The position numbers and the translations under genes are program-made. From contig JAZRZI010000038.1 in NCBI GenBank assembly GCA_045601325.1, positions 1 to 63,436 of the forward strand: 63,436 nt of DNA. Reading direction: 5' to 3'. The notes under the pieces are model-generated. The model worked only from the letters and a program-made list of their open reading frames with translations. It was not told where the DNA came from and did no database searches. Of the stretch, positions 4,713 to 51,161 are shown in pieces. The stretch is from Bacilli bacterium (GTDB taxonomy: Bacteria; Bacillota_I; Bacilli_A; RFN20; CAG-826). Within the stretch, counting starts at the first letter, position 1. Each line of letters begins with the position of its first letter.

Positions 4713-4753
4713 GCCAAAAGGACACAACAAAACAGCATAATTGTGTTTTGTGT
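4713..4753 (-). terminator. possible rho-independent terminator after the GH38 fragment
   Basis: Imperfect hairpin ACACAAAACAC-AATTATGC-TGTTTTGTTGTGT on the minus strand (4722..4753), followed by CCTTTTGG. It lies 18 nt downstream of the stop at 4771. The stem has a bulge and the U-run is short. Confidence 0.35.
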
Positions 4754-4770
4754 ATCTAGATAATTATTAA

Positions 4771-25647: not shown

Positions 25648-27603
25648 TTATATAGTTCTTGGGATACCTATTAACGAGGAAACTAACCAGTCACCTACAA
25701 GTGTGTTTCCGCCTTCATTCAATGCGTTTAAGAAGATGGCGATTCTTCCATCTGGAGAAGCATCACTTGATAATACGGTAGGGTTAATTTCTAACTTAGT
25801 CCATGCTTTTGGTTGAAGCACTGCGCGGGTATAGAAAGGATCATAAATTTCCCAATTCCATTCAGTGTTTCTAATTATCACATTAGCAGGGTTGTTTGTT
25901 GGGTTATAAATGCTAACGACGTAACCATTAGATGAAGGAGCAACATTTGGTTCGGTTGAATATGTTACAGCTTGTTCAATAATTGTTCCATCAACATTAG
26001 TTGGGTCGTTGTTAATCCTAAATCCAGAGACAAAACCAAATCTTTCGTTTTTAACTCCTTTAATAGGTTCAACTTCAGAACCATAGAAGTATTTAGTGAA
26101 ACCACTATCGTATCCGTTTTGTAATGAAACATATCCAGCGCTTCTATAGTGAGATTCTAAAGTTTCTAAAAGTTCGATTTGAGTGGATGTAACAACATCA
26201 TCTAAGTATTGACCTAGTTCGTTATATAAAGTTCTAGCGGTGGTCATAAAACACATATTATCGACGTGCTTATCTTCATCATCGCCGAGTTCATCTATTG
26301 TAGGCAAATTATCAAACGCATACTGCATAAGTGCAATTTTTTCTTCAATAGAACCACCGGTTAAATATGTTGTGCCAAAAAATAAAGTACCTGATGCGGG
26401 AACGATTGTGCCATCGTTAGGAGATTTAAGTTGATCAATGACAAAGAATTCTTGACCAGCAATTTCTCTAGCGCCCACTTTAAAGGTAATTGTTTCTCCA
26501 TCATGAACATCAACGTAAATGTTGTTGAAATAAGAGAACCATATACGAACATAATGTCCTGTTTCATTATGAATGGTTGAAAACATAAAATCGTATCCTT
26601 GCAAGTTTACTAACGGATCAAACTTGAAGTAACTATGAACAGAACCAGAGAATTCAATTTTTGTAGAACCCACAACAGCTTCCTCATCCTTCCAAGCATC
26701 AGAGAAAAAGATAGATGCTTTTGTGTTGAGGTGTGTATAGATGGATGATGTTCCATAGAATTCTGTGGTAGGAATAAAAGTATCATGCTTACCTGTAGGG
26801 GTGTTTGTGGCTTTCTTTAAAGCATAAAAAGCAGCGGTTTTGGCGTTGAAATCATTGATATTAGGCACAATTCTTTTATATAAGCCGGGTATTTTATCAA
26901 TAGCTAACGCCACTTCGTTCAATCTATCATAATCGCTTAATTGAATATTGCTTGTTTCTGGCAAAGCATCAATATCCGCTTTAACTTTATCAACAATTTC
27001 TTTATAGGTTATGTCTTCCTCTGTCATTTCACTTCCTATTTCGGCATGCCAGTTGTCGATATAGAAAGTATAACCAACTTTGTTGTCGTAATCAGTTTCA
27101 GGGGTGTATAACAATAGCGAAGAAGAAATTAATGTATCTTTATTGTTATCTAAAGCGATTTTAGATAATTCGAAAGAAAGGTGATTAAATTCATCTTTTA
27201 TAATATCGAATTCCTTTTCTAATAAGATATCTAATGATTCGTTATTATAAATAATGATTTTCGCAGTAGTGTCAAACAGGGAATCGTTATAAACATCAAT
27301 ATTAATAGATTTAATGTTTGCACCATCCATCTTTCCACTAGATGTATTGGTAAAGAAATGATGCATCTCAAAAGATGTACCAAAATAGTTAGTTAGTTTC
27401 ATGGATTTATTACCATGAGTAACACATTGGTCAGACAGTTCAATTTTCGCTCTATCTGCGTGTGATTTAGAAGGGAATTTCATCAACGAAAGTTCTTGAT
27501 AAGATTCAAAGTCGTTGATCATTCCGTTAGATGGATTACTATTAGACGAACAGCCAGCAAGTGTCGTTAATAGAAGCAAAGGAAGTAAATATATCTTTTT
27601 CAT
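25648..27603 (-). CDS. large lipoprotein with CBM-like N-terminal module, unknown function
   Basis: Lipobox LLLTTLAGC-SSN. The segment NDFESYQ...GNKSMKLT is CBM-like. Helical motifs such as ARTLYNELGQYLDDVVTSTQIELLETLE are shared with 38319..40898. Confidence 0.65.
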   Translation of the reverse strand: MKKIYLLPLLLLTTLAGCSSNSNPSNGMINDFESYQELSLMKFPSKSHADRAKIELSDQCVTHGNKSMKLTNYFGTSFEMHHFFTNTSSGKMDGANIKSINIDVYNDSLFDTTAKIIIYNNESLDILLEKEFDIIKDEFNHLSFELSKIALDNNKDTLISSSLLLYTPETDYDNKVGYTFYIDNWHAEIGSEMTEEDITYKEIVDKVKADIDALPETSNIQLSDYDRLNEVALAIDKIPGLYKRIVPNINDFNAKTAAFYALKKATNTPTGKHDTFIPTTEFYGTSSIYTHLNTKASIFFSDAWKDEEAVVGSTKIEFSGSVHSYFKFDPLVNLQGYDFMFSTIHNETGHYVRIWFSYFNNIYVDVHDGETITFKVGAREIAGQEFFVIDQLKSPNDGTIVPASGTLFFGTTYLTGGSIEEKIALMQYAFDNLPTIDELGDDEDKHVDNMCFMTTARTLYNELGQYLDDVVTSTQIELLETLESHYRSAGYVSLQNGYDSGFTKYFYGSEVEPIKGVKNERFGFVSGFRINNDPTNVDGTIIEQAVTYSTEPNVAPSSNGYVVSIYNPTNNPANVIIRNTEWNWEIYDPFYTRAVLQPKAWTKLEINPTVLSSDASPDGRIAIFLNALNEGGNTLVGDWLVSSLIGIPRTI

Positions 27604-27616
27604 TTATTCTTACCTC

Positions 27617-30082
27617 CTAGTATTCAACGAAAATATCGAAGATTGTGATTGTACGATCTGGATATAAAGTCTTATTATCATCCATGAAGTTATTTAACGA
27701 GATTGTGATTGTGTTTAAGTTCGTTAAATCAACATTTAAATACTTAACTTCGATAGAAACATTCTTTGAAGTTAAACTAGAAGCAAAGTGTGTACCAATT
27801 TGTTTATTAGCACCATTATTTTTAGAAGCTTTAATCTTAAATGTTAAATCGATATCTTCGTTTGTATTTGTATATTTGAAAAATATTCTCTTTGCGTTAG
27901 CTAATGATTCGCCCTTAATTGTGATAGAAGGGTTGAACATTTCGGTTTCAATCTCGGTATCTTTTCTAATACTCTTTAGTTTTGCATTAACATAGCCATC
28001 ATATATTTCAAAACTAGATTGTTCAGTAACTGATACATTGGTGCCACCAGCCAATAAGTTGGTGATATTTTCAAAACCATTGCTTTGGTGGTGGTATTTA
28101 TTTCCGGTTTCAGTAATTAATTCAATGTTCTTAGGTTGATCTGATAGAGCAATAGAATATTTATAACCATTAGAAACTGTTGTTGAAACAACAAATTCGC
28201 CATCAACTTTTAAAGTGGATGAGGTTGTGTAGATTTCGAGTTCATTGTCTTTAACAATCTTTAAAAGATTGTCATCGTTTTCAAAATTAAGAATTCTATT
28301 AGCTAATTCTTCTCTAGCTTCAAACACTAAATGATGATCTGTGTTTGTAATCGCATTATTAAATAAATTGTTGTATAAATCAGACACCACATTTGTGAAG
28401 TTAAAATCGTTAACACCATATTTGTCGCACAGTGATAAGTATTTTTCTTCTAATACTTCAAGCATTTCATAATCTTCTAAACCATCTCTGTATGTGAGTA
28501 AACGCATGCTAGGAAATGGGGTAGACGATTCGTAATATCTTCCTGGATACATAATAAATCCATCCCCAATCGCACCACCATTTTGTCCGTGATCATTTCT
28601 CCATGGGTTATCATATGGAGTTTCATAGAAGGAGTTGCAATCTTCTTCTCCATACATGTTGGCCATAAAGAACAAATAACCATTAACACCATAGGCCTTC
28701 TCCATCCAACCTAAAGAACGCATAGACAAACAATCGTCATCAATGTGGTTGCTTGGATAAGGATAGTTAGGAATACAACATGTATAATCCCATAAGTTAC
28801 CATAGGCATTACGGTTTGCCATATCCTTATATATTTCTTGATATTCCATATTCTTCAATAAGTTGACTTGAGGACAGAAAGTAGCAGGATAATTCTTAAC
28901 CCAATCGTTAACATACGTTGTGTTAGTAAAGATAGCAGGAATTTGAAGAATCGTGTTTTTAACTTTGGTATTCCAATCTTGGCTATGCTTATGGAAATAT
29001 CCTTCACTTTCAAGCATATTAATGGCTTTTTGAAGTGTTTTTTGATATTCACCACCTTTTTCAAAGAAGTGAGGTGTCGCTACTCTTTTGGATTCAATTA
29101 CATCAGCTTCGTCATATGTAGAAGGATAGAAAATTGCGCTTCCTAAATAGAAGTTTTCTTCAGTTGATGCTTTTGCGAGTTCAACGATATATGATGCCGC
29201 AACATCACCATCAGCGGTGTCTGCATAATATGATAGAGGGAAGTCAAAAGGAATTGTAATCGTGTTATAGTTTCTAATCTTCCATAAGTTTTTAACGTCT
29301 TTAACAAAGTCTTTAGGGTTATTCATAGGTCTTTCTTGAATAACGTAAGGGTTTGCTTTGTATTTTGATAAGAACTCACTATAGGTATCCATCATTTCCT
29401 TACTTGCATCATATTCACCCGTAAGCATATACAAGGAATAGATTAACCAACATGATTGGAATTTGCTCTTGTGATCAAGCTTAAAATCCCAAATAGTTAC
29501 TTCAATTGGGACATTAACAACATTATCACCGTATGTGAGGGTAAAGTTTCCTTTATAAACACCAGCATCTAATCCGTTAGAATCGACTTCAATAGAAAAA
29601 CCTTGGTTTGAGTTGGCTTCAATAACGTTTTCTTTAAATTCATAAGCTTTTTCAATTGGAAGAAGCATATCTGGAATAGATTCACCAGCATAAAAGAAGA
29701 ATACAGATTCACCTGCTCCATGAACGTTTGCGGGTATCTTTAAGTATTTTTGAACGTAAATTTGCATATTTTCTACAGGAATCGTTTTGCCGGTTGAAGA
29801 ATCTTTTAATTCGGCTTTTGTAAACTCATAGGAGCATCTTTTTCCTGAAGTTAAAATAACTTGAGTAGATTCATATTCATCCCTCATCATTTGAATCTTT
29901 GCGGTTGAACCGTTATCAATAAATTCTTCATTACGTCGAACTTCTTTGATTACTTTCATAGTTGGATAAGTAGTCCAAACTTTATCATCCACTATTGGTT
30001 TAGGTTCGGGGTTTGAACACGCCAATAAAGAGCTTGCCAACAGCGAAGTTAAAATAAAACGTGATATTTTATTAAATTTCAT
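27617..30082 (-). CDS. DUF4091 / GH123-like lipoprotein (putative surface glycoside hydrolase)
   Basis: Lipobox SLLASSLLAC-SNP. DUF4091-type pattern IEVTIWDFKLDHKS, and IGDGFIMYPGRYY...MRLLTYRDGLEDYEMLEVL. Confidence 0.65.
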   Translation of the reverse strand: MKFNKISRFILTSLLASSLLACSNPEPKPIVDDKVWTTYPTMKVIKEVRRNEEFIDNGSTAKIQMMRDEYESTQVILTSGKRCSYEFTKAELKDSSTGKTIPVENMQIYVQKYLKIPANVHGAGESVFFFYAGESIPDMLLPIEKAYEFKENVIEANSNQGFSIEVDSNGLDAGVYKGNFTLTYGDNVVNVPIEVTIWDFKLDHKSKFQSCWLIYSLYMLTGEYDASKEMMDTYSEFLSKYKANPYVIQERPMNNPKDFVKDVKNLWKIRNYNTITIPFDFPLSYYADTADGDVAASYIVELAKASTEENFYLGSAIFYPSTYDEADVIESKRVATPHFFEKGGEYQKTLQKAINMLESEGYFHKHSQDWNTKVKNTILQIPAIFTNTTYVNDWVKNYPATFCPQVNLLKNMEYQEIYKDMANRNAYGNLWDYTCCIPNYPYPSNHIDDDCLSMRSLGWMEKAYGVNGYLFFMANMYGEEDCNSFYETPYDNPWRNDHGQNGGAIGDGFIMYPGRYYESSTPFPSMRLLTYRDGLEDYEMLEVLEEKYLSLCDKYGVNDFNFTNVVSDLYNNLFNNAITNTDHHLVFEAREELANRILNFENDDNLLKIVKDNELEIYTTSSTLKVDGEFVVSTTVSNGYKYSIALSDQPKNIELITETGNKYHHQSNGFENITNLLAGGTNVSVTEQSSFEIYDGYVNAKLKSIRKDTEIETEMFNPSITIKGESLANAKRIFFKYTNTNEDIDLTFKIKASKNNGANKQIGTHFASSLTSKNVSIEVKYLNVDLTNLNTITISLNNFMDDNKTLYPDRTITIFDIFVEY

Positions 30083-30093
30083 GATGTTACCTT

Positions 30094-31692
30094 TTATAAG
30101 TTAGAGGAGATTGTGTCCCAGTTGTGTTTGATAAAATCGCTGTTTTCTTTTCTAACAGCTTCACCGCTTGAAACTTTTCCTTGAGCTAACCACGAAGCAC
30201 ATGTTCCGGTTAAACCAATGGAGTTAGAGAAGTTTGGTAAGACCCCAGCAACAGAGAACATTCTTGCCTTGACTGTGTTAATTAAATAAGGACAATATGC
30301 TCCAGCATCAAAAATCTTATTAGAGGCGATTCTAAATGAAGAGAGTGTTATGCCTTCATTACTATATTCACCTTGAGATAATGTAGCAGGTAAGTGATGA
30401 CCATTCATGGTTGTATAGAAGAGTTGTAATGCTTCATCAGAATACATCCATTTTAAGAAAGCTTTTGCCATTTCTTTTTTATGATTCCAAGTTGGAACAA
30501 CAAACAAGTGGTCATAGTCGGTTCTCATAACAGAACCATTGTTTCTAGCGTCTCTAACGATATCGACATCATCGGTTGTTACACCACTAGGCATATCAGT
30601 GTAATTACCATCTAAAGGATTGTTATCAACATAAGTAACTAAATTTCTTAGTGTTTCTTCGTTATCAAAAGACAATTTATTAATGATGCTTGAAACCAGT
30701 GGAATTTTAATCCAATCAATGTTGGATTTTCTTGCTGTTGGTGATTCAACTTCAAGCCATGTACCATTGACCATAAATGCAGAAGCACCAAATAAGAAAT
30801 AGTTTTGAACTTGTGTAAAGTCTCTGCTTGAGTCTGAGTGATGATATACATAAGAACCGTTTTGTTTCTTTAATAATTTTGCTAAAACGTTCGCGGATTC
30901 TGTTATACCTTGATATGCGTAGAAGTTATCAGATTGCTCGCCATTAGGATCTAAACCTTCATAGAAGTTTTCCATTCTATCCGAACCTTCATATTGCGCA
31001 AACCAAGCGCCCGTGATTGTTGTGTAGTATTCATTAGCTTCGGAATAGATTAATGGAGCGGTATTGTTAAATTTTGTCTTATCCGTTGCAATTTTAGAAT
31101 TCATATCATCCAATACTTCAAAGAACTCATCTGTTGTTCTTGGATAGTAATCGTTGGAATAACCAAATTTGTTCCAAACATCCAAGTTTCTGCAGAAAGA
31201 AACAAAACCGTTTGCCCATGGAACTGCATAGGTGTTATCGCCAACTGTTGCATAATCTTTAAATGTTTTATCAATCTTTTTTGACATTGTGTTTTTACCG
31301 CTTTCGCCTTCGTATTCACCATCATAAACATCGTTTAAGTTTTCAAAAACGCCTTGATATACATTTCCATCAGCGGCAGTTATTTGTCCACGATAAATGT
31401 ATTTATGGAAGCCAGAAGGACGAGTACCATAAATATCAGAAGTGCCAGCATAGGATTTAATTTGTGTATCAATAGAACCAATGCCGTTTTCTCCGATTTC
31501 TTCTATGATTTTGAATTTAACGCCTGTTTTTGAGGTGTATTCTTTGGTCAAAGCTTTTAGCCAGTCTAATCCATATCCGAGTTTTGTACAGGAAATGACC
31601 AAAGTGTCTTCGGAGACACTCCTGTTACAACCTGCTAGCGCAGTAAGAACCAAAGCCACGGAAACTAAAGGCAATAATCTTGTTTTTTTCAT
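30094..31692 (-). CDS. ABC transporter extracellular solute-binding lipoprotein (large family-1 type)
   Basis: 532 aa with lipobox VLTALAGC-NRS. Sits directly downstream of two sugar-type permease genes. Confidence 0.8.
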   Translation of the reverse strand: MKKTRLLPLVSVALVLTALAGCNRSVSEDTLVISCTKLGYGLDWLKALTKEYTSKTGVKFKIIEEIGENGIGSIDTQIKSYAGTSDIYGTRPSGFHKYIYRGQITAADGNVYQGVFENLNDVYDGEYEGESGKNTMSKKIDKTFKDYATVGDNTYAVPWANGFVSFCRNLDVWNKFGYSNDYYPRTTDEFFEVLDDMNSKIATDKTKFNNTAPLIYSEANEYYTTITGAWFAQYEGSDRMENFYEGLDPNGEQSDNFYAYQGITESANVLAKLLKKQNGSYVYHHSDSSRDFTQVQNYFLFGASAFMVNGTWLEVESPTARKSNIDWIKIPLVSSIINKLSFDNEETLRNLVTYVDNNPLDGNYTDMPSGVTTDDVDIVRDARNNGSVMRTDYDHLFVVPTWNHKKEMAKAFLKWMYSDEALQLFYTTMNGHHLPATLSQGEYSNEGITLSSFRIASNKIFDAGAYCPYLINTVKARMFSVAGVLPNFSNSIGLTGTCASWLAQGKVSSGEAVRKENSDFIKHNWDTISSNL

Positions 31693-31708
31693 GTTAAAAT
31701 CCTCCTAA

Positions 31709-32632
31709 TTATCCTTTTAAACCACCTAAGTGAACCTTTTCCATAATAGAGTTTTGGAATATTAAATATAAAATTAAAATTGGAACCAAAGAGATCATAA
31801 CGCCCGCTAAATATGCAGGACAATTAGCAATATATTTAGAAGAGCAATCCAGAGCATAAACCGCATACGCTAAGTTTGGATATTCAGACATATATAAAAT
31901 TGTGGATTCGTAGTCGTTCCACGACGTGATAAAGCTCATAACAAATAACGCAGAAGCAGATGGCACCACCATAGGTAACATAATTTGGAAGAACACTTTA
32001 TAGTGGTTTGCACCATCGACAAATGCCGCTTCAGCATAATCCCAAGATAAACTCTTATAAAATGAATACATATAGAAGAAATATCCACCATATAATCCAA
32101 TAGAGGTAATTAACGCAATCGGGTTGTTAATAAAATTGATTTTTTGATAGAACCTAAATGTTGCAGCAGCGCTGCCATAAAGCGGAAGAATTGCGACAAA
32201 AATACCCAAGTTATATAGAAACTTAGTAAATTTAGATTTATAGAACACCAAAACATAACAAACCATGGAACTAGTTAAGATAGACAAGAAAACATATGTA
32301 GTAGTTCTCCACAAAGAGTTCCAAGTGATGGTTAAGAAGGAATCTCTACCACCATTGATTGATGCTAGTGTGCTAAATGAATTGATAAACGAGCTGAGTG
32401 ATGCGTTTTTAGGCCAAGAAAATAAGTTCATATGGTTGAATTTTTCATAGTCAAACGCTGTACCATCTGGTCTAAGAGCGATTAAAAATGCAAAAACAAA
32501 GAAGAAAAGAATAAATGAAACGTAAAGAACAAATATACCAAATGCGATGCCAAATACGACCTTTTCGCCTTTTGATTTTTTACGTCCACCAGAGGACTTT
32601 CTAATGCGTGGTCTTTTATTTGTCTTTTCCAT
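31709..32632 (-). CDS. carbohydrate ABC transporter permease
   Basis: EAA loop YAEAAFVDGANHYKVFFQIMLPMV. The ORF track starts at TTG 32650; the ATG at 32630-32632 overlaps the upstream gene by 17 nt. Confidence 0.88.
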   Translation of the reverse strand: MEKTNKRPRIRKSSGGRKKSKGEKVVFGIAFGIFVLYVSFILFFFVFAFLIALRPDGTAFDYEKFNHMNLFSWPKNASLSSFINSFSTLASINGGRDSFLTITWNSLWRTTTYVFLSILTSSMVCYVLVFYKSKFTKFLYNLGIFVAILPLYGSAAATFRFYQKINFINNPIALITSIGLYGGYFFYMYSFYKSLSWDYAEAAFVDGANHYKVFFQIMLPMVVPSASALFVMSFITSWNDYESTILYMSEYPNLAYAVYALDCSSKYIANCPAYLAGVMISLVPILILYLIFQNSIMEKVHLGGLKG

Positions 32633-33566
32633 AAACAACTCTCTTAACAATTAATGCAAATGGGAATGAAACTGCAGTCATACATAAACCAATCGCACTT
32701 GCTAAATATAAATCTTGGGACGCACCTGTTCCGGATACTAATGCAAAAGTATAGAAAGATAGTGTCATTGTGCCTTTGTCGCCTTGAGTGAACGCAAGAA
32801 TAGGACCGCTTGCACCCAAAAAGCCAGCAGCTGATAAAATTAAGATAGTAGAAATAGTTGGCCAAATGGTAGGAAGCATAATATGGAAAAATTCTTGAAT
32901 CCAGTTAGCTCCGTCGATTTGTCCTGCTTCAAGCATTTGTGGGTCAATGGAGTTAAAAGCACCACCAATAACGATGATGTTGCCACCTAATCCAAATAAG
33001 AAGTTATAAGTTAAAATTGTAATGATTGCGTTAGGCGCTTTATCAAGCGGATAAGTGTATCCCATACTCCTAAATAAAACATCCAATGGACCACCATTAT
33101 CTAAAGAGATTTTAAATAAAACAACCAAAGCTGAGCTAGTAATAATACATGGAACGTACATAACCGCTCTGAAGAATTTATATCCACGTATTCTTCTAAC
33201 AAGGAAATAACACATCAATGTTGTTATAGGTAGAACCAATACGATATTCACAAAGTTAAATAATAAGGTGTTAATTAATGCCTCAGATAACACAGCCCCC
33301 GCTGATGAGAATCTATCCGCAATCATTTGAAAGTTTTGGAGCGTCCAATATTCACCTAATTGACCATTCGATAAAATGCCTTCTCTTTTAAAGGCCATAA
33401 AGAAAGAATTAATGTTTACGTAAACATAAAAGATAACAAATAAAACAACGGGAACAACCAAAAAAGAAAATACAAAAAGGTTCTTATCAAACGATTTCTT
33501 CTTTTTGCGATAAAGTTGGTTGATTGGAAGGACACTACCACCAGCGCGTTCTCTTGTTTCTGTCAT
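32616..33566 (-). CDS. carbohydrate ABC transporter permease
   Basis: EAA loop MLEAGQIDGANWIQEFFHIMLPTI and six predicted TM helices. Confidence 0.88.
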   Translation of the reverse strand: MTETRERAGGSVLPINQLYRKKKKSFDKNLFVFSFLVVPVVLFVIFYVYVNINSFFMAFKREGILSNGQLGEYWTLQNFQMIADRFSSAGAVLSEALINTLLFNFVNIVLVLPITTLMCYFLVRRIRGYKFFRAVMYVPCIITSSALVVLFKISLDNGGPLDVLFRSMGYTYPLDKAPNAIITILTYNFLFGLGGNIIVIGGAFNSIDPQMLEAGQIDGANWIQEFFHIMLPTIWPTISTILILSAAGFLGASGPILAFTQGDKGTMTLSFYTFALVSGTGASQDLYLASAIGLCMTAVSFPFALIVKRVVYGKDK

Positions 33567-33669
33567 TTTTTAACCTTATTAATATATTAATACGTTTTGT
33601 ATTTTTATCATAATTTTAAATTAATTATGTTAATAATTAACAAAATTGAATAATATATAAAATATATTA

Positions 33670-36600
33670 TTAAAAATTTATATCGCTTTCATTAATATTT
33701 ATATCGGTTAGGTTTTTGTCTTTAATTTTATTAAGTATGGATAATCTGGCCGCACCAAAAGAAGCGGATAAATCGTCGACATATTCCACCATACATAAAT
33801 AGCTTCTAATAGGTTCGTATTCATTATAAGAGGCAATGATTTTATCTATCATTTTTTGATCGTTATTAATAACGTTACCGGTTATTATAATCTTCTTAAT
33901 AGGTAGGATTCTTGAAATGTTTACAAAACCAATTCCTAGATAACCAGCTGCATTATCAAGGTCGCTACGATATTTATCTCTATTGGAATTAATTTCATCA
34001 AAATTTTCCACGTTTGCAAGTTTTGTAATACCTATTGTAGAGGCGCAATCCTCTAATGTTTTTTCTTTGTTTCCAAACGCAATAATCATATTGCCAAAAT
34101 CGATAGTTAAATTGTTATCTTTCTTATCGTTAATATATAAAGAAAATCCAATGCCGGACACCGCTCTGCAAAGCAAGAAACTATCAGGGTGATCTTTATA
34201 GTTATATAAGTATGTTTCCATCAAACAAGAAACGTCGTGTTCGATATAAGTATATATTCCAAACTTGTCTTCTAGTATTTTCTTTAAGTTGATGTTTTTC
34301 CATCCTTTGGCAAACTTAAATTCTTCATAGATGCCACCTTTTAATGTGATACCTTGGCAAGACACACCTATGGATACTATTTTGTATTTATCACCGATGA
34401 AATCAATACATTTTTGAATACATGTAAAAAGCAAATTCATTGCATAATCATAGGTATTTCCTTTGTATTCTTCAAAATAAGTTTTAATTATTTTAGAATC
34501 CATACCCACTACACTTGAGGAAAATCCGATAGAGTTAATATCCACACCAATCGCAACATAATTGTTTCCGTTTGGAATTAAATATGATGTGCTCCTTCCT
34601 ACTCCGTTAGTGACTTTTTCAGTTTCTAAAACAATGCCTTGATCTAACAAAATAGAAACCACACTAGAAACTGTGCCCCAAGAATAACCCGTAATTTTTT
34701 GAATTTCTCTCCTAGTAATTTTAGATTTCTCAATGATTAAGTCTGATATTTCATTAAAACTCTTTTGGTTTTCGGAATGTGAACTTAAATAAGTAACTCT
34801 TTCTTGCTTTGCGTTTGTTTTAACCATATAAACGGTCAAAGGAGGAATAATAATAGAGCTATCGCGGACACAAGAGTTACATTTAGAATCTAAATATATT
34901 TTTACAAATGAATCAAAATTAACTCTGTGGGGTTCCAAATCATAGTTTACAAGGAACGACGCAATCTCCTTTCCGTTTGTGAATGATGAAGTCAACACTG
35001 CATCAAAACGGAATTCATGATTATCTTCGTGTTTAATCGCTAACTTATCTACTTTGATAGAAAGGGGTTTATCTGCCTTTCCTTCACAAAGGAATTCTTT
35101 TTGATCCACCCTCCATCTATTTAGAGTCTTGATAAAAGATAGGGCCTTGTCTTTATCAACAACATCGCTTTTGCACCATGCGTCAGAAACTTCCCCGTCC
35201 CCATTAAGAACAATAGTAAACATATCTCCACAAATAAACGAATATGCAAGCCTATAGGTATACGAATATGGTTTATTTTCTAGCGTCATACAAATTTGAT
35301 TGCCTTGGAAGTTATTAACAAATTCATGATACAGATATGAATATATTGGGAATGGTTCGCCGATATAGTAATTCAATATGAATCTATTATCAGAGAATAG
35401 TAGATATGGAATAAAAGGTTCTCCTGCTGCTGATTCACAACCAAACAAAGATTTTGACTTATTTATACCCTCTAAAGTTGAAATTGTTTCTTCTACTTCC
35501 CAGCTTCCAGGAGCGGGACAATGTTTGTGTTTTGTTGAATAACACAAATACGCACAACCGCCATGGTTTTGATCGAGAATTTGGAAATAATCAATATTGG
35601 ATGAAAGCATTTTTTCGGTTTCGGCTTTGATTATATCTTTGGTCCTTTGTTCGCTAGGACACATATCTAATCCATACCTAATGTCAGAAACAATAGTAGA
35701 TTTAAGCTCTCCGTTTGTGTTTGCGCACATGATGTCGCTTAAATGTTTGTCATAATATTCCTTCTCGTTATTACAATTGCCTCTAAAGCTTTTAAGGGTA
35801 TAGCCAAAACCAGAAGCATATAAACCGATGAGCATGCCGTTATCATGGATAGCGGATACATATTCGTTAAATTCGTTAAGTCCTCCGAAAGGATTGAAAT
35901 AGTACGGAGGCGCCCAAGGCGCGGTGCCTTCATAATGCATCAACAAATTAAGTATTTTGGAATCTGTTTTCTCTTTAATTTCTTTTAAATGTTTTAAACC
36001 ATCCATATACGGATACATACCATTGGGTTTCATTTCCTTGTCAGAGTCATTTTTTCCTCTAATAGGATAAGTTACCACTACCGGAGATTCTTTATACCAT
36101 GAAGGTAGTGTTTTGTTCTCTTTGATAGAAACAAGGTTAGCGGGTTTGTTTTTATAAAACCAGTTTCTATAGATATCAAAAGCTTCATAACATGAGCCAC
36201 TATAAAGTTCAATGACACAGTCAAAATCCATCGTATAATCTTGACCAAAATCGGTGTTAGTAAAAGTTCGCATTTGTAGTTTTAAAGCATCATCAACTTT
36301 ATTAAAATCAATATGCTTTATGTTTCTGCGTTTATCATGCATTCCAAGATATAAACCGCATTTACCTCTATGATAGGAAATAAATTGACTTGATATCATG
36401 TTTGGAAAAACAAAGAATTTGCCCAAAGAAGGATAATCAACATCATAATATGTGAAAGGTGATTTTAATCTTCTTTCTAAATTTGTAACCTTCACACCTT
36501 CGTTATAAGGAATATAAATTTCTCCTATTCCGTTGTTTTCATCTTTTAATCTTGGACACAAACCAAATGATAATAATTCAACTTGCTCAATCAATAAGTC

Positions 36601-36897
36601 GGTTTTATTGGTAACACTAATGCGTGAGATTAATTTGTTCTTGGAAGCATCTAAAAATAAACACACAGATAGGTCATGGTTATCAAAATAATGGTTTTTT
36701 CCATTAGATTTAACATAATTAAACTTGCTAGCATCAACAAAATAGCTAGAAGCATCTCTTCTTCTTAATTTAATAGAGAAAAACGGAAGCGGTTTTTCGA
36801 TCAATTCAACCTTGTTATTAAAGCAAATGCTAGTAATAGCGGCTTTAGAGAATTCAAAAACTATATTTCCAAGTCCAAGTTTAAAAGTTTTGTTCAT
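33670..36897 (-). CDS. fusion protein: N-terminal ~695-aa glycoside-hydrolase-like domain + C-terminal ROK-family wHTH regulator
   Basis: One uninterrupted 1075-codon ORF. Aa 713-775 form a wHTH (ITRREIQKITGYSWGTVSSVVSILLDQGIVLE...GRSTSYL). Aa 778-1065 form a ROK fold (VAIGVDINSIGFSS, IVSIGVSCQG, SGIGFSLYIN, IIITGNV, SASFGAARL). The N-terminal part has the motifs FQILDQNHGG and GCESAAGEPF, and no signal peptide. Confidence 0.8.
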   Translation of the reverse strand: MNKTFKLGLGNIVFEFSKAAITSICFNNKVELIEKPLPFFSIKLRRRDASSYFVDASKFNYVKSNGKNHYFDNHDLSVCLFLDASKNKLISRISVTNKTDLLIEQVELLSFGLCPRLKDENNGIGEIYIPYNEGVKVTNLERRLKSPFTYYDVDYPSLGKFFVFPNMISSQFISYHRGKCGLYLGMHDKRRNIKHIDFNKVDDALKLQMRTFTNTDFGQDYTMDFDCVIELYSGSCYEAFDIYRNWFYKNKPANLVSIKENKTLPSWYKESPVVVTYPIRGKNDSDKEMKPNGMYPYMDGLKHLKEIKEKTDSKILNLLMHYEGTAPWAPPYYFNPFGGLNEFNEYVSAIHDNGMLIGLYASGFGYTLKSFRGNCNNEKEYYDKHLSDIMCANTNGELKSTIVSDIRYGLDMCPSEQRTKDIIKAETEKMLSSNIDYFQILDQNHGGCAYLCYSTKHKHCPAPGSWEVEETISTLEGINKSKSLFGCESAAGEPFIPYLLFSDNRFILNYYIGEPFPIYSYLYHEFVNNFQGNQICMTLENKPYSYTYRLAYSFICGDMFTIVLNGDGEVSDAWCKSDVVDKDKALSFIKTLNRWRVDQKEFLCEGKADKPLSIKVDKLAIKHEDNHEFRFDAVLTSSFTNGKEIASFLVNYDLEPHRVNFDSFVKIYLDSKCNSCVRDSSIIIPPLTVYMVKTNAKQERVTYLSSHSENQKSFNEISDLIIEKSKITRREIQKITGYSWGTVSSVVSILLDQGIVLETEKVTNGVGRSTSYLIPNGNNYVAIGVDINSIGFSSSVVGMDSKIIKTYFEEYKGNTYDYAMNLLFTCIQKCIDFIGDKYKIVSIGVSCQGITLKGGIYEEFKFAKGWKNINLKKILEDKFGIYTYIEHDVSCLMETYLYNYKDHPDSFLLCRAVSGIGFSLYINDKKDNNLTIDFGNMIIAFGNKEKTLEDCASTIGITKLANVENFDEINSNRDKYRSDLDNAAGYLGIGFVNISRILPIKKIIITGNVINNDQKMIDKIIASYNEYEPIRSYLCMVEYVDDLSASFGAARLSILNKIKDKNLTDININESDINF

Positions 36898-36977
36898 AAC
36901 AACATCTTGTGTTAAATAATTATATCATTTACTTATATAATCAATAACTTAAACTTTTGAATATGTAACAATTGTGA

Positions 36978-38315
36978 CTAATTTGTCACTTCAAGAAGCA
37001 CACATTCTCCTGCCTTTAATGTTAAAGATAATTTGTTTCCTTTAAATGGTTTGGTTGTGTTATCAAAGCTTAAAATATTGCCAATAATACCTCTAGAGAA
37101 GTTAACATTTAAGGTGGATGATTTTTCAAAATTATTATTTGTTAACAAATAAACTGTCTTTTTTCCATAAGAGAACGTGGATAATATTCCACCATTTTTA
37201 CATTTGAATGATTTAATATCACGATTGTTATTAGATTCGTTAGGGAATGGTGAAAACACTGTTAGTTTTGTGTTTCCATCGCTCATAAAACCAATCAATG
37301 TAGAGTTAATCAAAATATCATCAAAGTAACTAATTGCTTTATTTACGTTTTGAATAAATGGATATATTGTGCTTCTTTCACCGCGTTCATTAACGATAGA
37401 ACCAGGCATACCCAAATAATCATCACCATTTGGAGTCATAAAGCAGAAATATTGAAACCCTTTACAACCATATGCTAGAGAAGTGGACACCTGCCAGTAT
37501 ATTTCGCCTTCGGTTGGCAGTCGATATTGGCCTGTGCCAGCTTTATGAGAAGACGCTAACACAAAGTTCCAAAAAGGTACATTGAATCTACGGCTCACTC
37601 TACTTGCGTAAACAAGATTTAAGAAATAATCAGAACGCATGTTTGGAGTATCACCATACTCAGGATAAAAATCGTAAGAAAAATATGGTGAGTTAGTGAT
37701 GCTAACAAAATCTTCTAAATATTGTTGATAATCTCTGCCTGCTAAATAATACTCTGGAAGATAACAAGGATTTAAATTCACATAAAAAAGATAACTGCTG
37801 TCGTAATATGAATAGAAATTTTCCCTTAAGGTTTTGATGGTTTTATAATCAGCATATCTAGGTTCGTCCCACTCTAAAATGCCCGCAAAAGACTCATAAT
37901 CTTCATAATGAGCCTCTTTTAAATATGCGATAGTATCTTCTTTATTTAAATTATGTGCTCCTTGGTCAATTGGTAAAAACAACAAGTCATTTTGTTCTGC
38001 GTATTCAAAAGATTTATATATGCCTTTTCTTTTTCTAGAAAGTTCACTATCGTTTTCCCATATCCAGTCACCCATACCACCATAGATCATGTTTAGGCCG
38101 GCATCTTTAACGTTTTTAAATTGCTCTAATGTATTTAATCCTAATGAGGAATCTGGTCCACACCAAGCAGATATAGGCATTGTGTCAGAATCTAGTTTTG
38201 AGAAAGTATACTTCGCTACTGATGATTCTTCATATTCAAAAGAAGTGTAATCAACGTGATTATTACACGAAGTGAGTAATATAAATGGGATTAAAAATAA
38301 CAATCTTCTATTCAT
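36978..38315 (-). CDS. lipoprotein, putative (beta/alpha)8 glycoside hydrolase (paralogue of 20876..22054)
   Basis: Lipobox FILLTSC-NNH. Motifs shared with the 392-aa protein: EWDEP, SYDFYP, EGEIYWQVSTSLAYGCKGFQYFCF. Confidence 0.55.
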   Translation of the reverse strand: MNRRLLFLIPFILLTSCNNHVDYTSFEYEESSVAKYTFSKLDSDTMPISAWCGPDSSLGLNTLEQFKNVKDAGLNMIYGGMGDWIWENDSELSRKRKGIYKSFEYAEQNDLLFLPIDQGAHNLNKEDTIAYLKEAHYEDYESFAGILEWDEPRYADYKTIKTLRENFYSYYDSSYLFYVNLNPCYLPEYYLAGRDYQQYLEDFVSITNSPYFSYDFYPEYGDTPNMRSDYFLNLVYASRVSRRFNVPFWNFVLASSHKAGTGQYRLPTEGEIYWQVSTSLAYGCKGFQYFCFMTPNGDDYLGMPGSIVNERGERSTIYPFIQNVNKAISYFDDILINSTLIGFMSDGNTKLTVFSPFPNESNNNRDIKSFKCKNGGILSTFSYGKKTVYLLTNNNFEKSSTLNVNFSRGIIGNILSFDNTTKPFKGNKLSLTLKAGECVLLEVTN

Positions 38316-38318
38316 TAT

Positions 38319-40898
38319 CTAATTAACGCCTTTAATAGCGCTAATCTTTAAAGTACCTAAAGCGTTGTTATAAACAACACCCAAGCCATTATGAGGATAG
38401 CCAGAGCCTTGACCAACCAAACTAACAGGAACAATTATATCGTTCCACCCTTGATTTAAGTTTTTGCTCACTCCAGCCCAAGATGTACCATGTATCTCTA
38501 AATGAGCACCTTCTTGAGGAGAATAAATCTTGAACGATAAGTTTGTGTAGTTGTTCATTTTGCTATTAACAGGAATCAAGAAGCTATGTTCACCAGAATC
38601 GGGATTTTCAATAACTTGAACAACACCTTCATCTTCATCGATTGCGGTTATAGAACTAAGTGGTCCATAATCCCATCCAGCAAAGTTGGTTTTTCCATCA
38701 TAAATAATGTCTGGGTCGGTGACTTCTAGTCCAAAGACAGCGCCAAATTTCCACTCACCTGCAGAGTTGTTGATAATAATGCCAACTGCGTCAATTGGAT
38801 ATGTTCCATTAAATAAGCTTACTGGCACAACAATTTCGTTCCATCCTTGTTTCAAATCTTTACTTACTCCATTCCAAATTGTGCCATGGACACCAATGTG
38901 TCCTGAATTGGTTGGGCAATACACTGTTAAAACAATATTTTCATATGCGGTGATGCCATCATATTTAGGAATAGTTAAGCTTTGTTCTCCAGTATCAGAC
39001 GCGTTTAATACTCTGAGATTACCATACACATCATCGTTAACGTTTTGTAATGCTTCGCCTGCAGTAGATAATGGGTATTCCCATTTACGTAATGTTAATG
39101 AACCATCATCGATAATATTGAACATTTCTAACGATTCGGTAGCAGCGTTATAAATTGAATAATCTAAAATAGGATCGTTTTTAATGGATTCTGGTTCATT
39201 ATCCAAATCAGAAACGGATTTTGCTAACGCCATAGCGTCGATGTATGAACTTAATAAAGTAAGCGGGGCTAAGGCATTTAGTTTTTCTTGATAAATAGCC
39301 ACACTAGCGTCGTGATTATATTCCGCTACTGCAATTTCTAATTCTTCTAACTTGCTATAGTTAGTAACAGCGAGTTTTTCGTTGTCACTTAATCCGTTAT
39401 AAAGGTTTCTCGCTTGAATGATAGCTTCTTCCTCTTCTTTCGAATGGTCTACATAAGTTAAAGCATCAATAGCGTCGCAAACAATATTTACATGGTAGTT
39501 AAAAACATTGGTTTCATATTCAATAAGTTTACTGATGTTAGTAACTAACCTCTTGCCACCTCTGCTAAGAGCGTTATATGCCGCTCTAGCAGCAACGATT
39601 GCGTTTTGTTCTTCACTAGAATATGTATTTAGTGTTAAATCTTCGATTTGTTTAATAACTTTTTCCACATTTGTTGAATCGACATATCCATAAACATTAG
39701 ATATTTTCCAAGGACTTGTAACCCTGTTTAATTCAAGAACGATATTAAAATCAGTTAAATGGTTGGCTTTTAATTGATTTAAATCAACATTAACTGTAAA
39801 CCATCCCTGTCTCACATTAGCGATAGAAAAATAGTGAACCCAGTCTAGATTCCATAGATTAATATTATCGGTTAAGCTATTAGGATTATAGAACATAAAA
39901 AACAAGTTATCATATTCACTAATATCGGTGTTATTTGCAAAGCCGAAGCAGGCATTGTGAGAAGTGTTATCGATTGTGTAAACATCACCAAAGTCATTGT
40001 CTTTTTCTGGTGCAAAAGTAGAAGTTACTTCAAATCCAAGGAATTCTTTATGATCGCTTAATGATTCCTTACTATAGTCAGTAACTTTTTTATATTGGGA
40101 CAAAGAGGCTTCTAATTGTTCAACCTTCTCTTTAGCGGTATTAGAAACATCGCCATACCATTTATCGGCTTTTATGGTTTCTATTTTTACATTGAGTTTA
40201 AGACAATCTTCAAAAGAAGATGAAACTAGACTTAACTCATCAATAACGGTTTCTAAAGCAGAAACACGTTCTTCACGATATTTATTTAACAAATTATTAA
40301 AATTATCTATTAAATCTTTTTCAATATAAGACTTATATTCATCGCTTAATGCATCTAAAGACTCTTTCACCGCTAGCAAGTCTTCTTCGCTGGATGCATC
40401 ATCTAATTCATTAAGCATACCAACCACTTCTGATATAGCTTCTAATATCATTATACGATGTGCTTGTTGTTCAAGTTTGCTCAAATTAGTCACGTATGCT
40501 TTTTGCTCTTCACTTAGTTCATCATAAGCTTCATAGACTTCGTCGATTTGATATTGTGTTGAGTCATCATTTAATTTGTCGATTAACGCAACAACTTTAG
40601 AGGCAGCAATTTTGTTTTCGTGAGTTACCAAAACATCATAGTTGGTAACTAATCTTTTTTGGACATTGATTAAGTTATCATACATCTCTCTTACTCTAGC
40701 AACTTCCTCTTCGCTAGGGTTTTCTCCAAGATTATTAATGGCTTCAATAACCTCATTAGCGCGGTTTTGGTTTATAACTTCTTGACTTTCGGTCCCTCCG
40801 TTACCACCACCACCATCTGATTTATTGCATCCGGTGATTAAAGATACAGCAAGAAAAGAAAGCATTAATTTTTTAATTAACTTATGGTTTTTGTTCAT
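38319..40898 (-). CDS. large repeat-containing lipoprotein (helical repeats + three beta-sandwich modules)
   Basis: The ORF track starts at TTG 40928. The ATG at 40896-40898 has AAGGAG 6 nt upstream. Lipobox VSLITGC-NKS. Five copies of a Y(D/N)xL...(Q/E)K.LVTN...L motif. Tandem C-terminal modules each end in QGWN(E/D)I(I/V)VPVSL. Confidence 0.7.
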   Translation of the reverse strand: MNKNHKLIKKLMLSFLAVSLITGCNKSDGGGGNGGTESQEVINQNRANEVIEAINNLGENPSEEEVARVREMYDNLINVQKRLVTNYDVLVTHENKIAASKVVALIDKLNDDSTQYQIDEVYEAYDELSEEQKAYVTNLSKLEQQAHRIMILEAISEVVGMLNELDDASSEEDLLAVKESLDALSDEYKSYIEKDLIDNFNNLLNKYREERVSALETVIDELSLVSSSFEDCLKLNVKIETIKADKWYGDVSNTAKEKVEQLEASLSQYKKVTDYSKESLSDHKEFLGFEVTSTFAPEKDNDFGDVYTIDNTSHNACFGFANNTDISEYDNLFFMFYNPNSLTDNINLWNLDWVHYFSIANVRQGWFTVNVDLNQLKANHLTDFNIVLELNRVTSPWKISNVYGYVDSTNVEKVIKQIEDLTLNTYSSEEQNAIVAARAAYNALSRGGKRLVTNISKLIEYETNVFNYHVNIVCDAIDALTYVDHSKEEEEAIIQARNLYNGLSDNEKLAVTNYSKLEELEIAVAEYNHDASVAIYQEKLNALAPLTLLSSYIDAMALAKSVSDLDNEPESIKNDPILDYSIYNAATESLEMFNIIDDGSLTLRKWEYPLSTAGEALQNVNDDVYGNLRVLNASDTGEQSLTIPKYDGITAYENIVLTVYCPTNSGHIGVHGTIWNGVSKDLKQGWNEIVVPVSLFNGTYPIDAVGIIINNSAGEWKFGAVFGLEVTDPDIIYDGKTNFAGWDYGPLSSITAIDEDEGVVQVIENPDSGEHSFLIPVNSKMNNYTNLSFKIYSPQEGAHLEIHGTSWAGVSKNLNQGWNDIIVPVSLVGQGSGYPHNGLGVVYNNALGTLKISAIKGVN

Positions 40899-41250
40899 AT
40901 TTTTCTCCTTTGGCTTGGTTAGATTCAAATATGTTGTTACTTATTTTATATTTTACCACTTAATTTAATCGTAAAAAATTATTCTAATAGTTTTTTAAAA
41001 GAAAAAGGCATCTATCCAATTGTTGATATAATTAAGTTAAATATTAACTTTTGTGTTTATAGCACGCAAAAAATATTTTGGATTTTTTATGTATAGCGTT
41101 TAAAAACAAACAAAACAAATTTATAAACCTAAACATTCAGTGTAGGAATAAATTAAGCAAGTGCAGTCGATTGAAAATTCAACTTCCTGTTCAATAATAA
41201 TCTTCATATCAAGTAAAATTATTGTTCAAATGTTTTGATTGGTTGGCCGA

Positions 41251-44833: not shown

Positions 44834-45892
44834 TTACCCGTTATGAATTAATTCATATTTTCTAATTCTTTTTTTAATAATAATAGGTTTTACAAACCCA
44901 TTTTGAGCGAGTTCTGAGCACCAAAAAATTATTGTTCTATTTGAAACGCTAAAAACTATTGACATATCAATGGGAGTAAACGTCTTAACGTTGTTGTTTA
45001 TCAAAAAATCAAGAAACGTTTTTGCTTTCTTAGATAAGTGACTTAATCTTTCTGCTTCAGCATTGTTTGTCTCTTTTTTAGCAATTGACAACGTTTTTGA
45101 AGAATATATTGAAAAAACTCTCAAGAAATATTTAACCCATATTTCTATATGCGGTGGATTGTTTCTTCCATCATAAAACAAAACAGGCAACCCCATTTGT
45201 AAAGAGTTGTAATACTCCTCTATATCATAAGACATGTATTCTTCCAACGAACCAATGCTTTTAAAGCCATATCCAGTAAAAGCTAAATAATAACTTGATA
45301 TAATCCTAGCGGTTCTTCCATTTCCATCCTCGAATGGATGAATGGTAGCAAGTTGATAATGCAAAATTGCAGCTTTAATCAAAGGGTGATCATCAGATTC
45401 ATTTATATACACCATTAAGTCTTCAAGAAGTGGCAAAATATCAGAGTGTTCTGGAGGGATGTAAGCAGGTGTTCCATCATCGTTCCAAACCGCAAATAAA
45501 ACACCAACAGGCATCTGACCTCTAAAGCCAATTCTTTCCTTTGGTTCGCCATCACAAATCATTTTTTGTACATCCAATATCATCTCAATTGATATAGGTT
45601 CGTGACCACTTAGTTTAGATTCTAAAAACTCTAACGCTAAATAATAATTTCTTATTTCCTGTTCGGACTTTAAAAGATGTCTATTTCTTGATTCAATAAC
45701 TTCACTTGCTTGTTCAAAAGACAAAGGGTTTCCCTCAATTTTGTTAGAGGCATATGATGATCTTTTGCGGGTGTTCTTTCTAAATTTGTTTGACAAGGTT
45801 AAAGGGATGTCAATTCTATTCAAAGAATCTTTGTTTTTTTCAATCTCCAAAATATAGTTCAAAATTTCACTATCTATTAAGGCTTTTACCAT
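44834..45892 (-). CDS. Fic family protein (AMPylase-type) with N-terminal inhibitory helix and C-terminal wHTH-like tail
   Basis: Canonical motif HPFEDGNGRTARI. Inhibitory motif [S/T]xxxE[G/N] present as SNKIEGN. The ORF track starts at GTG 45928; the ATG at 45890-45892 has AGGA upstream. Confidence 0.85.
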   Translation of the reverse strand: MVKALIDSEILNYILEIEKNKDSLNRIDIPLTLSNKFRKNTRKRSSYASNKIEGNPLSFEQASEVIESRNRHLLKSEQEIRNYYLALEFLESKLSGHEPISIEMILDVQKMICDGEPKERIGFRGQMPVGVLFAVWNDDGTPAYIPPEHSDILPLLEDLMVYINESDDHPLIKAAILHYQLATIHPFEDGNGRTARIISSYYLAFTGYGFKSIGSLEEYMSYDIEEYYNSLQMGLPVLFYDGRNNPPHIEIWVKYFLRVFSIYSSKTLSIAKKETNNAEAERLSHLSKKAKTFLDFLINNNVKTFTPIDMSIVFSVSNRTIIFWCSELAQNGFVKPIIIKKRIRKYELIHNG

Positions 45893-45963
45893 AACTTTTT
45901 TTCCTATAATAAGTATAGCAAAATTCACTATTTTTTCACTATTTTGTTTAGCAAAATCACTAA

Positions 45964-48915: not shown

Positions 48916-48918
48916 AAA

Positions 48919-51160: not shown

Positions 51161-51161
51161 A

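Follow-up and report, generated by a model that had tools for sequence, protein, structure and literature searches.

How does one protein come to carry both an enzyme-like module and a complete transcriptional regulator, and do the two parts act together? The question is posed by a stretch of 63,436 nucleotides from a Bacilli bacterium (contig JAZRZI010000038.1 of assembly GCA_045601325.1; hereafter the window), which carries a gene whose product consists of a DUF6259 module (amino acids, aa, 1-695), a linker (696-711), a winged helix-turn-helix (HTH; 712-775) and a ROK domain (776-1061). An initial annotation of this DNA had read the gene as a glycoside hydrolase (GH)-like domain fused to a ROK regulator, and had proposed that the former receives the signal. 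The fusion is real and old, and both halves have long been under purifying selection as one reading frame; as to how the protein works, we think it rather probable that the enzyme and the repressor, joined by a flexible tether, still do what they did before the fusion, with classical, sugar-relieved ROK repression of the adjacent uptake operon.

A single reading frame

The open reading frame (ORF) listing and the translation of the minus strand give the same single 1075-aa ORF that was first described, and every motif quoted with it (FQILDQNHGG, GCESAAGEPF, LLFSDNRF, VDINSIG and FGNKEKTLEDCAS) is present in the translation. Two other fused proteins were matched in a search of 5.8 billion protein clusters: P0002 (1075 aa, 83% identity to the window protein), from assembly GCA_024500545.1, and P0003 (1071 aa, 82% identity), from two Logan runs; the other matches listed are stand-alone DUF6259 proteins of ~700 aa with 44-53% identity. 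The window protein, P0002 and P0003, from three independent assemblies, share the same junction, and the P0003 contig has the gene order of the window (fused gene, permease, permease, binding protein). In a codon alignment with the fused gene of locus L001, nucleotide identity is 78% and synonymous change is saturated (synonymous divergence, dS, ~1.9), while the ratio of nonsynonymous to synonymous change (dN/dS) is 0.059 over the whole fused gene, and 0.061, 0.057 and 0.048 for aa 1-695, the HTH and the ROK domain, respectively. One codon at ~aa 293 and the last four codons are the only differences in length. A frameshift or missed stop is excluded by the frame shared among orthologues and by the low dN/dS, and the same evidence upholds the initial description of a genuine single gene for a cytoplasmic GH-like module and an HTH-ROK regulator.

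The junction is an end-to-start join with essentially nothing added, since stand-alone enzymes end at the ...PPLTVYMVKTN of the window protein, and the N-terminus of stand-alone ROK proteins, M-(E/I)-N-Y-I-x-N-H-x-x-x-Q-K-S-F, aligns with R-V-T-Y-L-S-S-H-S-E-N-Q-K-S-F at aa 700-714. The ancestral ROK start methionine is now V701 (GTT), and both a start codon and a Shine-Dalgarno (SD) sequence are absent there. An artefact might be suggested by the relatives in which the genes are separate, their stop and start codons overlapping or lying close together, and by an in-frame ATG (M691, 34827) just ahead of the junction; the cell would then make a 695-aa enzyme and a ROK protein of ~375 aa, joined in the sequence by an error of sequencing or assembly or by a stop codon lost very recently. 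We regard this as highly improbable: GCA_024500545.1 and two Logan runs have the same uninterrupted frame, with 82-83% identity in protein and 78% in nucleotide sequence, ATG, GTG and TTG are all absent at the ancestral Met position, M691 is preceded by CCTCCTTTGACCGTTTAT with no SD sequence, and the Met after M691 lies inside the ROK domain. With these starts lost or unsuitable, the HTH-ROK part can be made only within the long protein. An artefact or frameshift was rejected on the strength of a junction common to independent orthologues, low dN/dS, and a junction with neither start codon nor SD sequence.

Assembly GCA_024500545.1 holds, in addition to the fused P0002 (on a 3315-nt contig), the unfused ROK protein P0126 (on a 1134-nt contig), and is likely a mixed or metagenomic assembly with both fused and split lineages.

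Origin and rarity of the fusion

The C-terminal part is most closely related to ROK proteins that stand alone (356-391 aa), and two loci show the pair of genes from which the fusion derives. In L004, from a Bacilli metagenome-assembled genome (MAG) of horse faeces (GCA_024409055.1), a 693-aa DUF6259 gene is followed by a 377-aa ROK gene; stop and start codons overlap as TAATG, with AGGAGG inside the end of the first gene. The 694-aa DUF6259 and 364-aa ROK genes of L007 are in the same frame and separated by a gap of 3 nt (TAA TTT). Both loci have the same two modules in the same order as the window, and in L004 the same transporter operon follows; they differ in that the modules are two polypeptides, that the ROK protein keeps its zinc motif, and in sequence (47-50% identity for the enzyme, 34-39% for the ROK part). 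The fusion, which is lineage-specific and belongs to one small group of uncultured gut Bacilli, joins in frame, by read-through, two neighbouring genes that had been coupled in translation and that remain split in L004 and L007.

None of the 80 DUF6259 loci found in species representatives of GTDB is fused, and an adjacent ROK regulator occurs among them only in L008 (the same contig as L004); the species of the window itself lies outside these representatives (best match 49%). Locus L056 has an ORF matching the ROK profile 1 kb downstream of its DUF6259 gene, cut by the contig end. An exhaustive phmmer search, with aa 696-1075 as query and 1.84 billion representatives at 50% identity as targets, gave 1924 matches. 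In the best 150 of these an N-terminal extension is found only in the window's own cluster, in agreement with the initial remark that no described ROK protein is known to have such an extension. We also note P0168 (832 aa), a different extended ROK regulator in which the HTH-ROK part is N-terminal (aa 20-229 matched) and ~450 extra residues are C-terminal. A literature search returned no hydrolase-ROK regulator fusion and nothing relevant on trigger enzymes together with glycoside hydrolases. Within the reach of these searches the architecture is new; it arose by a common route, the fusion of neighbouring genes.

The N-terminal DUF6259 module

Stand-alone homologues with 45-53% identity span aa 1-695, and Pfam places this part in DUF6259 (PF19773; aa 221-528, 66 bits, above the gathering score of 28.7 bits). 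An AlphaFold2 model of aa 1-695 (m9cd135926489), built from 65 family sequences, has a predicted local distance difference test score (pLDDT) of 94.1 and a predicted template modelling score (pTM) of 0.94, with a beta-sandwich at 2-233, a (beta/alpha)8 barrel at ~234-605 and a second beta-sandwich at 606-695, the layout that had been proposed from the letters alone. There is no signal peptide, also as first described, because residues 2-15 form strands of the first sandwich and the stand-alone homologues start at the same position.

The description of the module as GH-like holds for its fold and fails for its sequence, by which it belongs to an uncharacterised family. Foldseek comparison with the PDB gave matches to GH129, GH101 and GH36 (E 6e-25 to 1e-16, probability 1.0) at identities of 10-14%. 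The best are the GH129 enzymes ZgGH129 (E 6e-25; template modelling score, TM, 0.6) and NagBb (E 1e-21; TM 0.62-0.69), followed by EngBF and SpGH101 of GH101 (E ~1e-20; TM 0.32-0.37 on the query and 0.22-0.25 on the targets, which are much longer) and FpGalNase and TmGalA of GH36 (E 2e-18 to 2e-16; TM 0.47-0.60). At the sequence level the window protein and the 65 family members match no Pfam GH family, DUF6259 being the only one above cut-off; the NCBIfam scan of the fused protein gave no link from the N-terminal module to a known GH, and a family-profile search of PDB sequences found no GH match at E up to 10. Weak Glyco_hydro_42C matches to the last beta-sandwich occur in 18 of the 65 family members.

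Of the 96 positions at which 64 stand-alone homologues do not vary, the window protein has kept 94, every invariant acidic residue included (D411, D436, D442, E488, E493, D503 and D558), and most of these acids lie at or just after predicted barrel strands; D411, D442, E488 and D503, at or just past strand ends in the model, are candidate catalytic residues. The two otherwise invariant positions that have changed in the fused copy are Y375C and Q647S. At positions at least 90% conserved the window protein deviates more than its relatives do (17 of 170, versus a mean of 3.3 and a maximum of 11 in other homologues), and most of the 17 deviations are exchanges among Tyr, Phe and Trp. From the model and the conserved acids we infer that the module is a cytoplasmic glycosidase and catalytically competent; it is probably a retaining enzyme with a GH129/GH101/GH36-like fold and, by analogy with its structural neighbours, probably acts on an alpha-linked sugar.

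DUF6259 is a large family of ~700-aa proteins with ~95 invariant residues, found in gut Bacilli and Clostridia and in two Kiritimatiellia MAGs, and is a candidate for a new glycoside hydrolase family on the basis of the predicted structure. Its genes often lie beside GH38 and GH112 genes, and tandem copies are seen in L045 and L068. The neighbours in L003 code for GH38, GH112 and a BD-FAE esterase, and that in L004 for GH38, and these neighbour genes suggest that the substrates are mannosides or host-glycan fragments. In L066, from an Acutalibacteraceae MAG, the DUF6259 gene is followed (4084-5028) by a gene for a true ROK sugar kinase (MRILGFDIGGTK, DIGGT) lacking an HTH, which hints that the product of the enzyme is a monosaccharide that can be phosphorylated. 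No paper mentioning DUF6259 was found in the literature search.

The C-terminal HTH-ROK module

Pfam places aa 783-1027 in ROK (PF00480; 39.5 bits, cut-off 22.9), and aa 718-756 match HTH_24 at 21.5 bits, just under the cut-off of 21.9. Against PDB sequences the window protein has matches only within aa 717-1027, the best being 2hoe (1.6e-15), followed by Lmo0178, the GNE kinase domain and Mlc. A profile of the ROK clade matched 33 ROK proteins in the PDB, covering both HTH and ROK domain (Lmo0178 at 1e-45, 2hoe/TM1224 at 7e-40, then Mlc and XylR/MecR2). Foldseek comparison of the full-length model likewise recovered operator-bound Lmo0178 (5f7q; TM on target 0.72-0.75), 2hoe (0.80) and Mlc. 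The winged HTH and ROK fold of the initial annotation are thus present by AlphaFold2, by PDB alignments that begin in the HTH, and by Foldseek. Scores for the NCBIfam equivalogs NagC (39.4 versus 650 bits) and Mlc (15.2 versus 530 bits) fall far short of their thresholds, and a ROK-kinase match is also sub-threshold.

The ROK hallmarks are degenerate, as had been noticed in VDINSIG and in the missing zinc motif. In alignment A2 the phosphate-1 motif DxGxT is replaced by D-I-N-S-I-G, and the zinc site (His plus CxCGxxGC) is absent, with 4 of 4 ligands missing (DFGN...NKE-------KTLEDC). The suggestion that a kinase role is unlikely stands, as the kinase ATP motif is lacking. D-x-N-S/T or a similar sequence in place of DxGxT is found throughout the clade of stand-alone relatives, and the zinc site, kept in P0123-P0130, is gone both from the fused proteins and from three unfused ones, P0121, P0122 and P0131, of which P0121 and P0122 are the closest unfused ROK relatives. 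Because unfused relatives share them, the losses of the zinc and ATP motifs predate the fusion.

The zinc site does not define regulator function. TM1224/ManR (2hoe) also lacks the zinc motif, and binds a 23-bp palindromic operator from which it is released by 2 mM mannose (PMC3553997); an altered ATP motif is normal among ROK regulators (PMC3553997). As unfused relatives and the working ManR share the loss, it is no sign of a shift of sensing to the enzyme module. Of the five canonical sugar-contact residues of ROK proteins (Gly, Asn, Glu, His and Glu; PMC3553997), the alignment indicates that the Gly and the last Glu are kept and that the others are Asn to His, Glu to Asp and His to Asn. The first two of these changes are clade-wide, and the third is confined to the fused proteins (the closest unfused relatives have Arg). 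ManR and ChiR deviate at two sugar-contact positions yet respond to sugars (PMC3553997).

This ROK clade seems to be linked with loci of the mannoside type, and TM1224/ManR, which it matches best in structure, responds to mannose. In L088 (93-4277) the stand-alone ROK protein P0124 (47% identical) is encoded 13 nt behind a GH38 alpha-mannosidase gene, and the order in L004 is GH38-DUF6259-ROK.

The downstream operon and its candidate operators

The fused gene lies, on the minus strand, directly upstream of ABC (ATP-binding cassette) permease genes, as was first reported. Two BPD_transp_1 permeases and an SBP_bac_8 binding protein were identified by Pfam on the same strand, and the operon that they open is presumed to be the target of the regulator. 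The order DUF6259(-ROK)-permease-permease-binding protein-821 aa-651 aa is conserved in the window, L001, L004 and L012, and in L012 there is no ROK gene between the enzyme gene and the permeases. The features of the locus are listed in Table 1.

Table 1. Coordinates of the fused gene, its parts, and associated features in the window
Feature	Position	Strand	Description and basis
Fused gene, complete	33670..36897	minus	1075 codons, ATG to TAA; second TAA directly after
N-terminal beta-sandwich	36199..36897	minus	aa 1-233; AlphaFold2 pLDDT >90, strands from residue 2
(beta/alpha)8 barrel	35083..36198	minus	aa 234-605; Pfam DUF6259, invariant columns, Foldseek
C-terminal beta-sandwich	34813..35082	minus	aa 606-695; ends where stand-alone homologues end
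Fusion junction and linker	34765..34812	minus	aa 696-711 (AKQERVTYLSSHSENQ); codon listing, alignment, pLDDT, dN/dS
Winged HTH	34573..34764	minus	aa 712-775; three helices and beta-hairpin wing (AlphaFold2, HTH_24, Foldseek 5f7q)
ROK domain	33718..34572	minus	aa 776-1060; actin-ATPase fold, sugar-binding type; Pfam, PDB sequences, alignment A2, Foldseek
Downstream co-directional operon	25648..33566	minus	Permease, permease, solute-binding protein, 821-aa unknown, 651-aa lipoprotein-like unknown; Pfam and synteny
Spacer, fused gene to permease	33567..33669	minus	103 nt; 93% identical to L001 (coding DNA 78%)
Palindrome 1, candidate operator	33650..33670		21-bp perfect ATAATATAT-AAA-ATATATTAT; starts at stop codon; unique in window
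Palindrome 2, candidate operator	33577..33592		16-bp perfect TATTAATATATTAATA; abuts ribosome-binding site of first permease; unique in window
Inverted repeat ATTATAT-N9-ATATAAT	36919..36941		Perfect 7-N9-7; conserved in window and L001/L002

The spacer ahead of the first permease gene contains two perfect palindromes, the longer of which has an expectation of 0.00 in shuffled sequences. In L004, ATAATATAC-ATA-GTATATTAT lies 10 nt past the ROK stop codon with the same 9+3+9 geometry, and TATTAATCATTAATA follows 7 nt further; L004 is too diverged for these to be merely inherited spacer. Among the window and 90 fetched loci, motif 1 (ATAATAT-N0-8-ATATTAT) occurs only in the window, L001/L002, L004/L008, L007 and L088, and motif 2 (TATTAAT-N1-2-ATTAATA) only in the window, L001/L002, L004/L008 and L005/L006. 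All of the loci with either motif encode this ROK clade, and neither motif was found in ~240 kb of equally AT-rich loci or ~700 kb of other loci lacking this clade, nor in the corresponding spacer of L012. L004 has both palindrome types after its ROK gene and L007 only that of motif 1. The sites (L004 3553-3594, L001 3399-3493, L007 3235, L088 5868, L005 7344) usually lie no more than 30 nt downstream of the ROK gene or of the one next to it; in L088 and L005 they follow a later gene of the same co-directional cluster. Palindromes of ~23 bp are known binding sites for ROK regulators. We consider the two palindromes, from their sequence and distribution, to be probable operators for the transporter operon, and they would act either at the operon's own promoter or on transcription running in from the regulator gene.

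Upstream of the fused gene, a conserved extended -10-like sequence (TGATATAAT; 36919-36927, minus strand) lies inside the inverted repeat at 36919..36941, ~20 nt upstream of the start codon. This region likely holds the promoter for the fused gene and may also serve in autoregulation. The exact repeat is unique in the window, its pattern is not enriched above chance, and its half-sites are unlike both palindromes. A consensus scan for promoters and terminators gave counts equal to those in shuffled sequences.

How the fused protein may work

The linker itself (aa 697-710, ~14 residues) has pLDDT <50, and dN/dS at the junction is 0.20 versus ~0.05 elsewhere, roughly three to four times the rate of the domains. 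A full-length AlphaFold2 model, from a 24-sequence alignment (A6) in which the placement of both halves was checked, has pLDDT 84 and pTM 0.66, compared with the 0.94 of the N-terminal module alone, and no PDB chain matched by Foldseek spans both halves. These models predict two folded modules on a short flexible tether with no fixed interface, which does not by itself prove that the modules are independent.

The reading that we prefer is one in which each module would go on doing what its unfused ancestor did. The HTH-ROK part would dimerise like other ROK repressors and bind the AT-rich palindromes between its own stop codon and the first permease gene, and this binding would repress, or block read-through into, the downstream ABC oligosaccharide-uptake operon. 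Sugar in the ROK cleft would free the protein from the DNA, the releasing sugar most likely being a mono- or disaccharide from processing of the imported glycan by the N-terminal enzyme. The fusion itself would ensure 1:1 expression and set the sensor beside the enzyme that makes its probable ligand. Several points weigh against this account. No DUF6259 protein has a shown activity or known substrate, and ligand binding in the ROK cleft is assumed, given that three of the five sugar contacts differ in the alignment from those of kinases. The HTH is internal, and the 700-aa module ahead of it could sterically affect DNA binding, making the modules non-independent. The palindromes consist only of A and T in an AT-rich genome, the spacing between their 7-nt arms varies from 0 to 8 nt among loci, motif 2 of L005 sits at the far end of the operon, and the 63-kb window has one site per motif, which gives no regulon-level support; degenerate versions of both palindromes are not above chance in the window, and no second target site was found there.

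The proposal with which the initial annotation ended was a trigger enzyme or one-component sensor, in which the GH-like module receives the signal, its conformation or oligomeric state changing on oligosaccharide binding or turnover, and gates the adjacent winged HTH, leaving the ROK domain mainly as a dimerisation scaffold. We judge this unlikely. The winged HTH does lie directly behind the 700-aa module, with ~14 residues between them, and the fused proteins lack every zinc ligand and have Asn at the His position of the sugar and zinc site; that proposal, however, took the degenerate hallmarks as its starting point, and this step is not supported, as the motif losses predate the fusion, which itself came from the read-through of adjacent genes, and the linker is predicted to be flexible. 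Zinc loss and D-x-N-S are seen equally in unfused P0121, P0122 and P0131 and in the functional ManR/TM1224; the linker is of low confidence and faster-evolving (dN/dS 0.20), with no confident interdomain packing (pTM 0.66), and of all parts of the protein it is the supposed scaffold, the ROK domain, that is under the strongest purifying selection (0.048). Persistence of the fusion over a dS of ~1.9 with no fission hints at some advantage, and the excess of deviations at conserved positions (17 of 170, against a mean of 3.3) is compatible with adaptation after fusion; those changes are mostly Tyr/Phe/Trp swaps that leave every invariant acid in place.

The same excess, with Y375C and Q647S among the changes, might instead reflect an N-terminal module that has become an inactive carbohydrate-binding domain serving ligand binding or oligomerisation, so that the protein is simply an enlarged regulator, and the family's lack of any member with demonstrated activity leaves room for this. 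We find it quite improbable in view of the 94 of 96 invariant positions kept, D411, D436, D442, E488, E493, D503 and D558 among them, the dN/dS of 0.061, and the 50-53% identity to stand-alone members in glycosidase operons with GH38 and GH112. It is, in our view, distinctly unlikely that the fusion is adaptive in the sense of a product- or substrate-gated repressor, the catalytic cycle or oligomeric state of the enzyme gating the winged HTH or its product being handed to the ROK cleft. The computed results do not favour a trigger enzyme over two tethered, independent modules, and they do not point to a new regulatory principle.

Comparison with known systems

The C-terminal part resembles the ROK repressors Lmo0178 (5f7p/q/r), TM1224/ManR (2hoe), Mlc, NagC and XylR in having a winged HTH followed by an actin-fold ROK domain and in lacking the kinase ATP motif; as in the window, their genes adjoin the sugar-uptake or degradation genes that they control, and their operators are palindromic and AT-rich, as predicted for the window protein. 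They differ in being ~360-410 aa long with the HTH at the very N-terminus, whereas in the window protein a 695-aa enzyme-like module precedes it. That module shares its three-part layout with GH129 (the alpha-N-acetylgalactosaminidase NagBb and the 3,6-anhydro-D-galactosidase ZgGH129), the GH101 endo-alpha-GalNAc-ases and the GH36 alpha-galactosidases, and like them has invariant acids at the ends of barrel strands, the equivalence to GH catalytic residues being only putative; at 10-14% identity it has no sequence-level membership of these families.

PutA, BirA and NadR are trigger enzymes with a built-in DNA-binding domain, in which the substrate state switches DNA binding. By analogy, the window protein would resemble them in uniting an enzyme module with a DNA-binding domain for the control of the same pathway, but unlike them it also carries a complete, separately evolved sensor domain (ROK). 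Two metabolic fusions are among the sequence and structural matches, GNE (UDP-GlcNAc 2-epimerase and ROK ManNAc kinase; 2yhw, 3eo3) and AgaSK (GH36 alpha-galactosidase and sucrose kinase; 2yfn), each with a sugar-processing enzyme ahead of a module that binds and acts on a related sugar; their C-terminal modules are active kinases with no DNA-binding domain, and neither protein is a regulator.

Other genes in the window

Five large ORFs near the fused gene match no family in Pfam or NCBIfam: those at 25648-27603, 27617-30082, 36978-38315, 38319-40928 and 45964-47976 (651, 821, 445, 869 and 670 aa). Two of them, of 821 and 651 aa, have syntenic counterparts in L004 and L012 with 41-51% identity, and the 651-aa one has a lipoprotein-like signal at its start. 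A 797-aa protein (41251-43644) has three DUF285 ('Mycoplasma') repeats and segments resembling leucine-rich repeats; this protein and the GC content of 33% fit an uncultured low-GC Bacilli lineage, and the ORFs read cleanly in table 11.

The region at 47986-59250 looks like a second glycan-utilisation cluster. It includes a second set of ABC permease and binding protein genes (47986-51211), with the gene for a 1791-aa protein upstream (51162-56537; weak GH42-like barrel at aa 1084-1301) and adjoining it a gene for a 911-aa protein with a PKD-like domain (56515-59250). A MalK-type ABC ATPase of 507 aa (59253-60776) has an ABC_tran match at residues 22-304 on a 137-position profile, which indicates a large insertion in its nucleotide-binding domain. 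A Fic/DOC-family protein (364 aa; 44834-45928) is encoded between the two glycan clusters.

Significance

The fusion is a 'Rosetta stone' that links the uncharacterised DUF6259 family, which comprises more than 1000 clusters and is widespread in gut Firmicutes, to a ROK sugar sensor and to a specific ABC uptake operon. Either DUF6259 or this ROK clade lies beside a GH38 alpha-mannosidase in the three relatives examined for this (L003, L004 and L088), with a GH112 phosphorylase also in L003, and the sugar that releases the repressor would be a strong clue to the product of the DUF6259 enzyme. The fused (window, L001) and split (L004, L007) pairs are a natural experiment on tethering an enzyme to the regulator of its pathway. 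If the modules were coupled, the trigger-enzyme concept would extend to glycoside hydrolases, with this protein the first GH-based example, and DUF6259 would be tied to a defined sugar signal; if they are independent, which we hold to be likelier, this is an ordinary fusion of neighbouring genes. The main practical value lies in the functional lead on DUF6259 and in the fused-versus-split comparison, and the predicted operators are directly testable.

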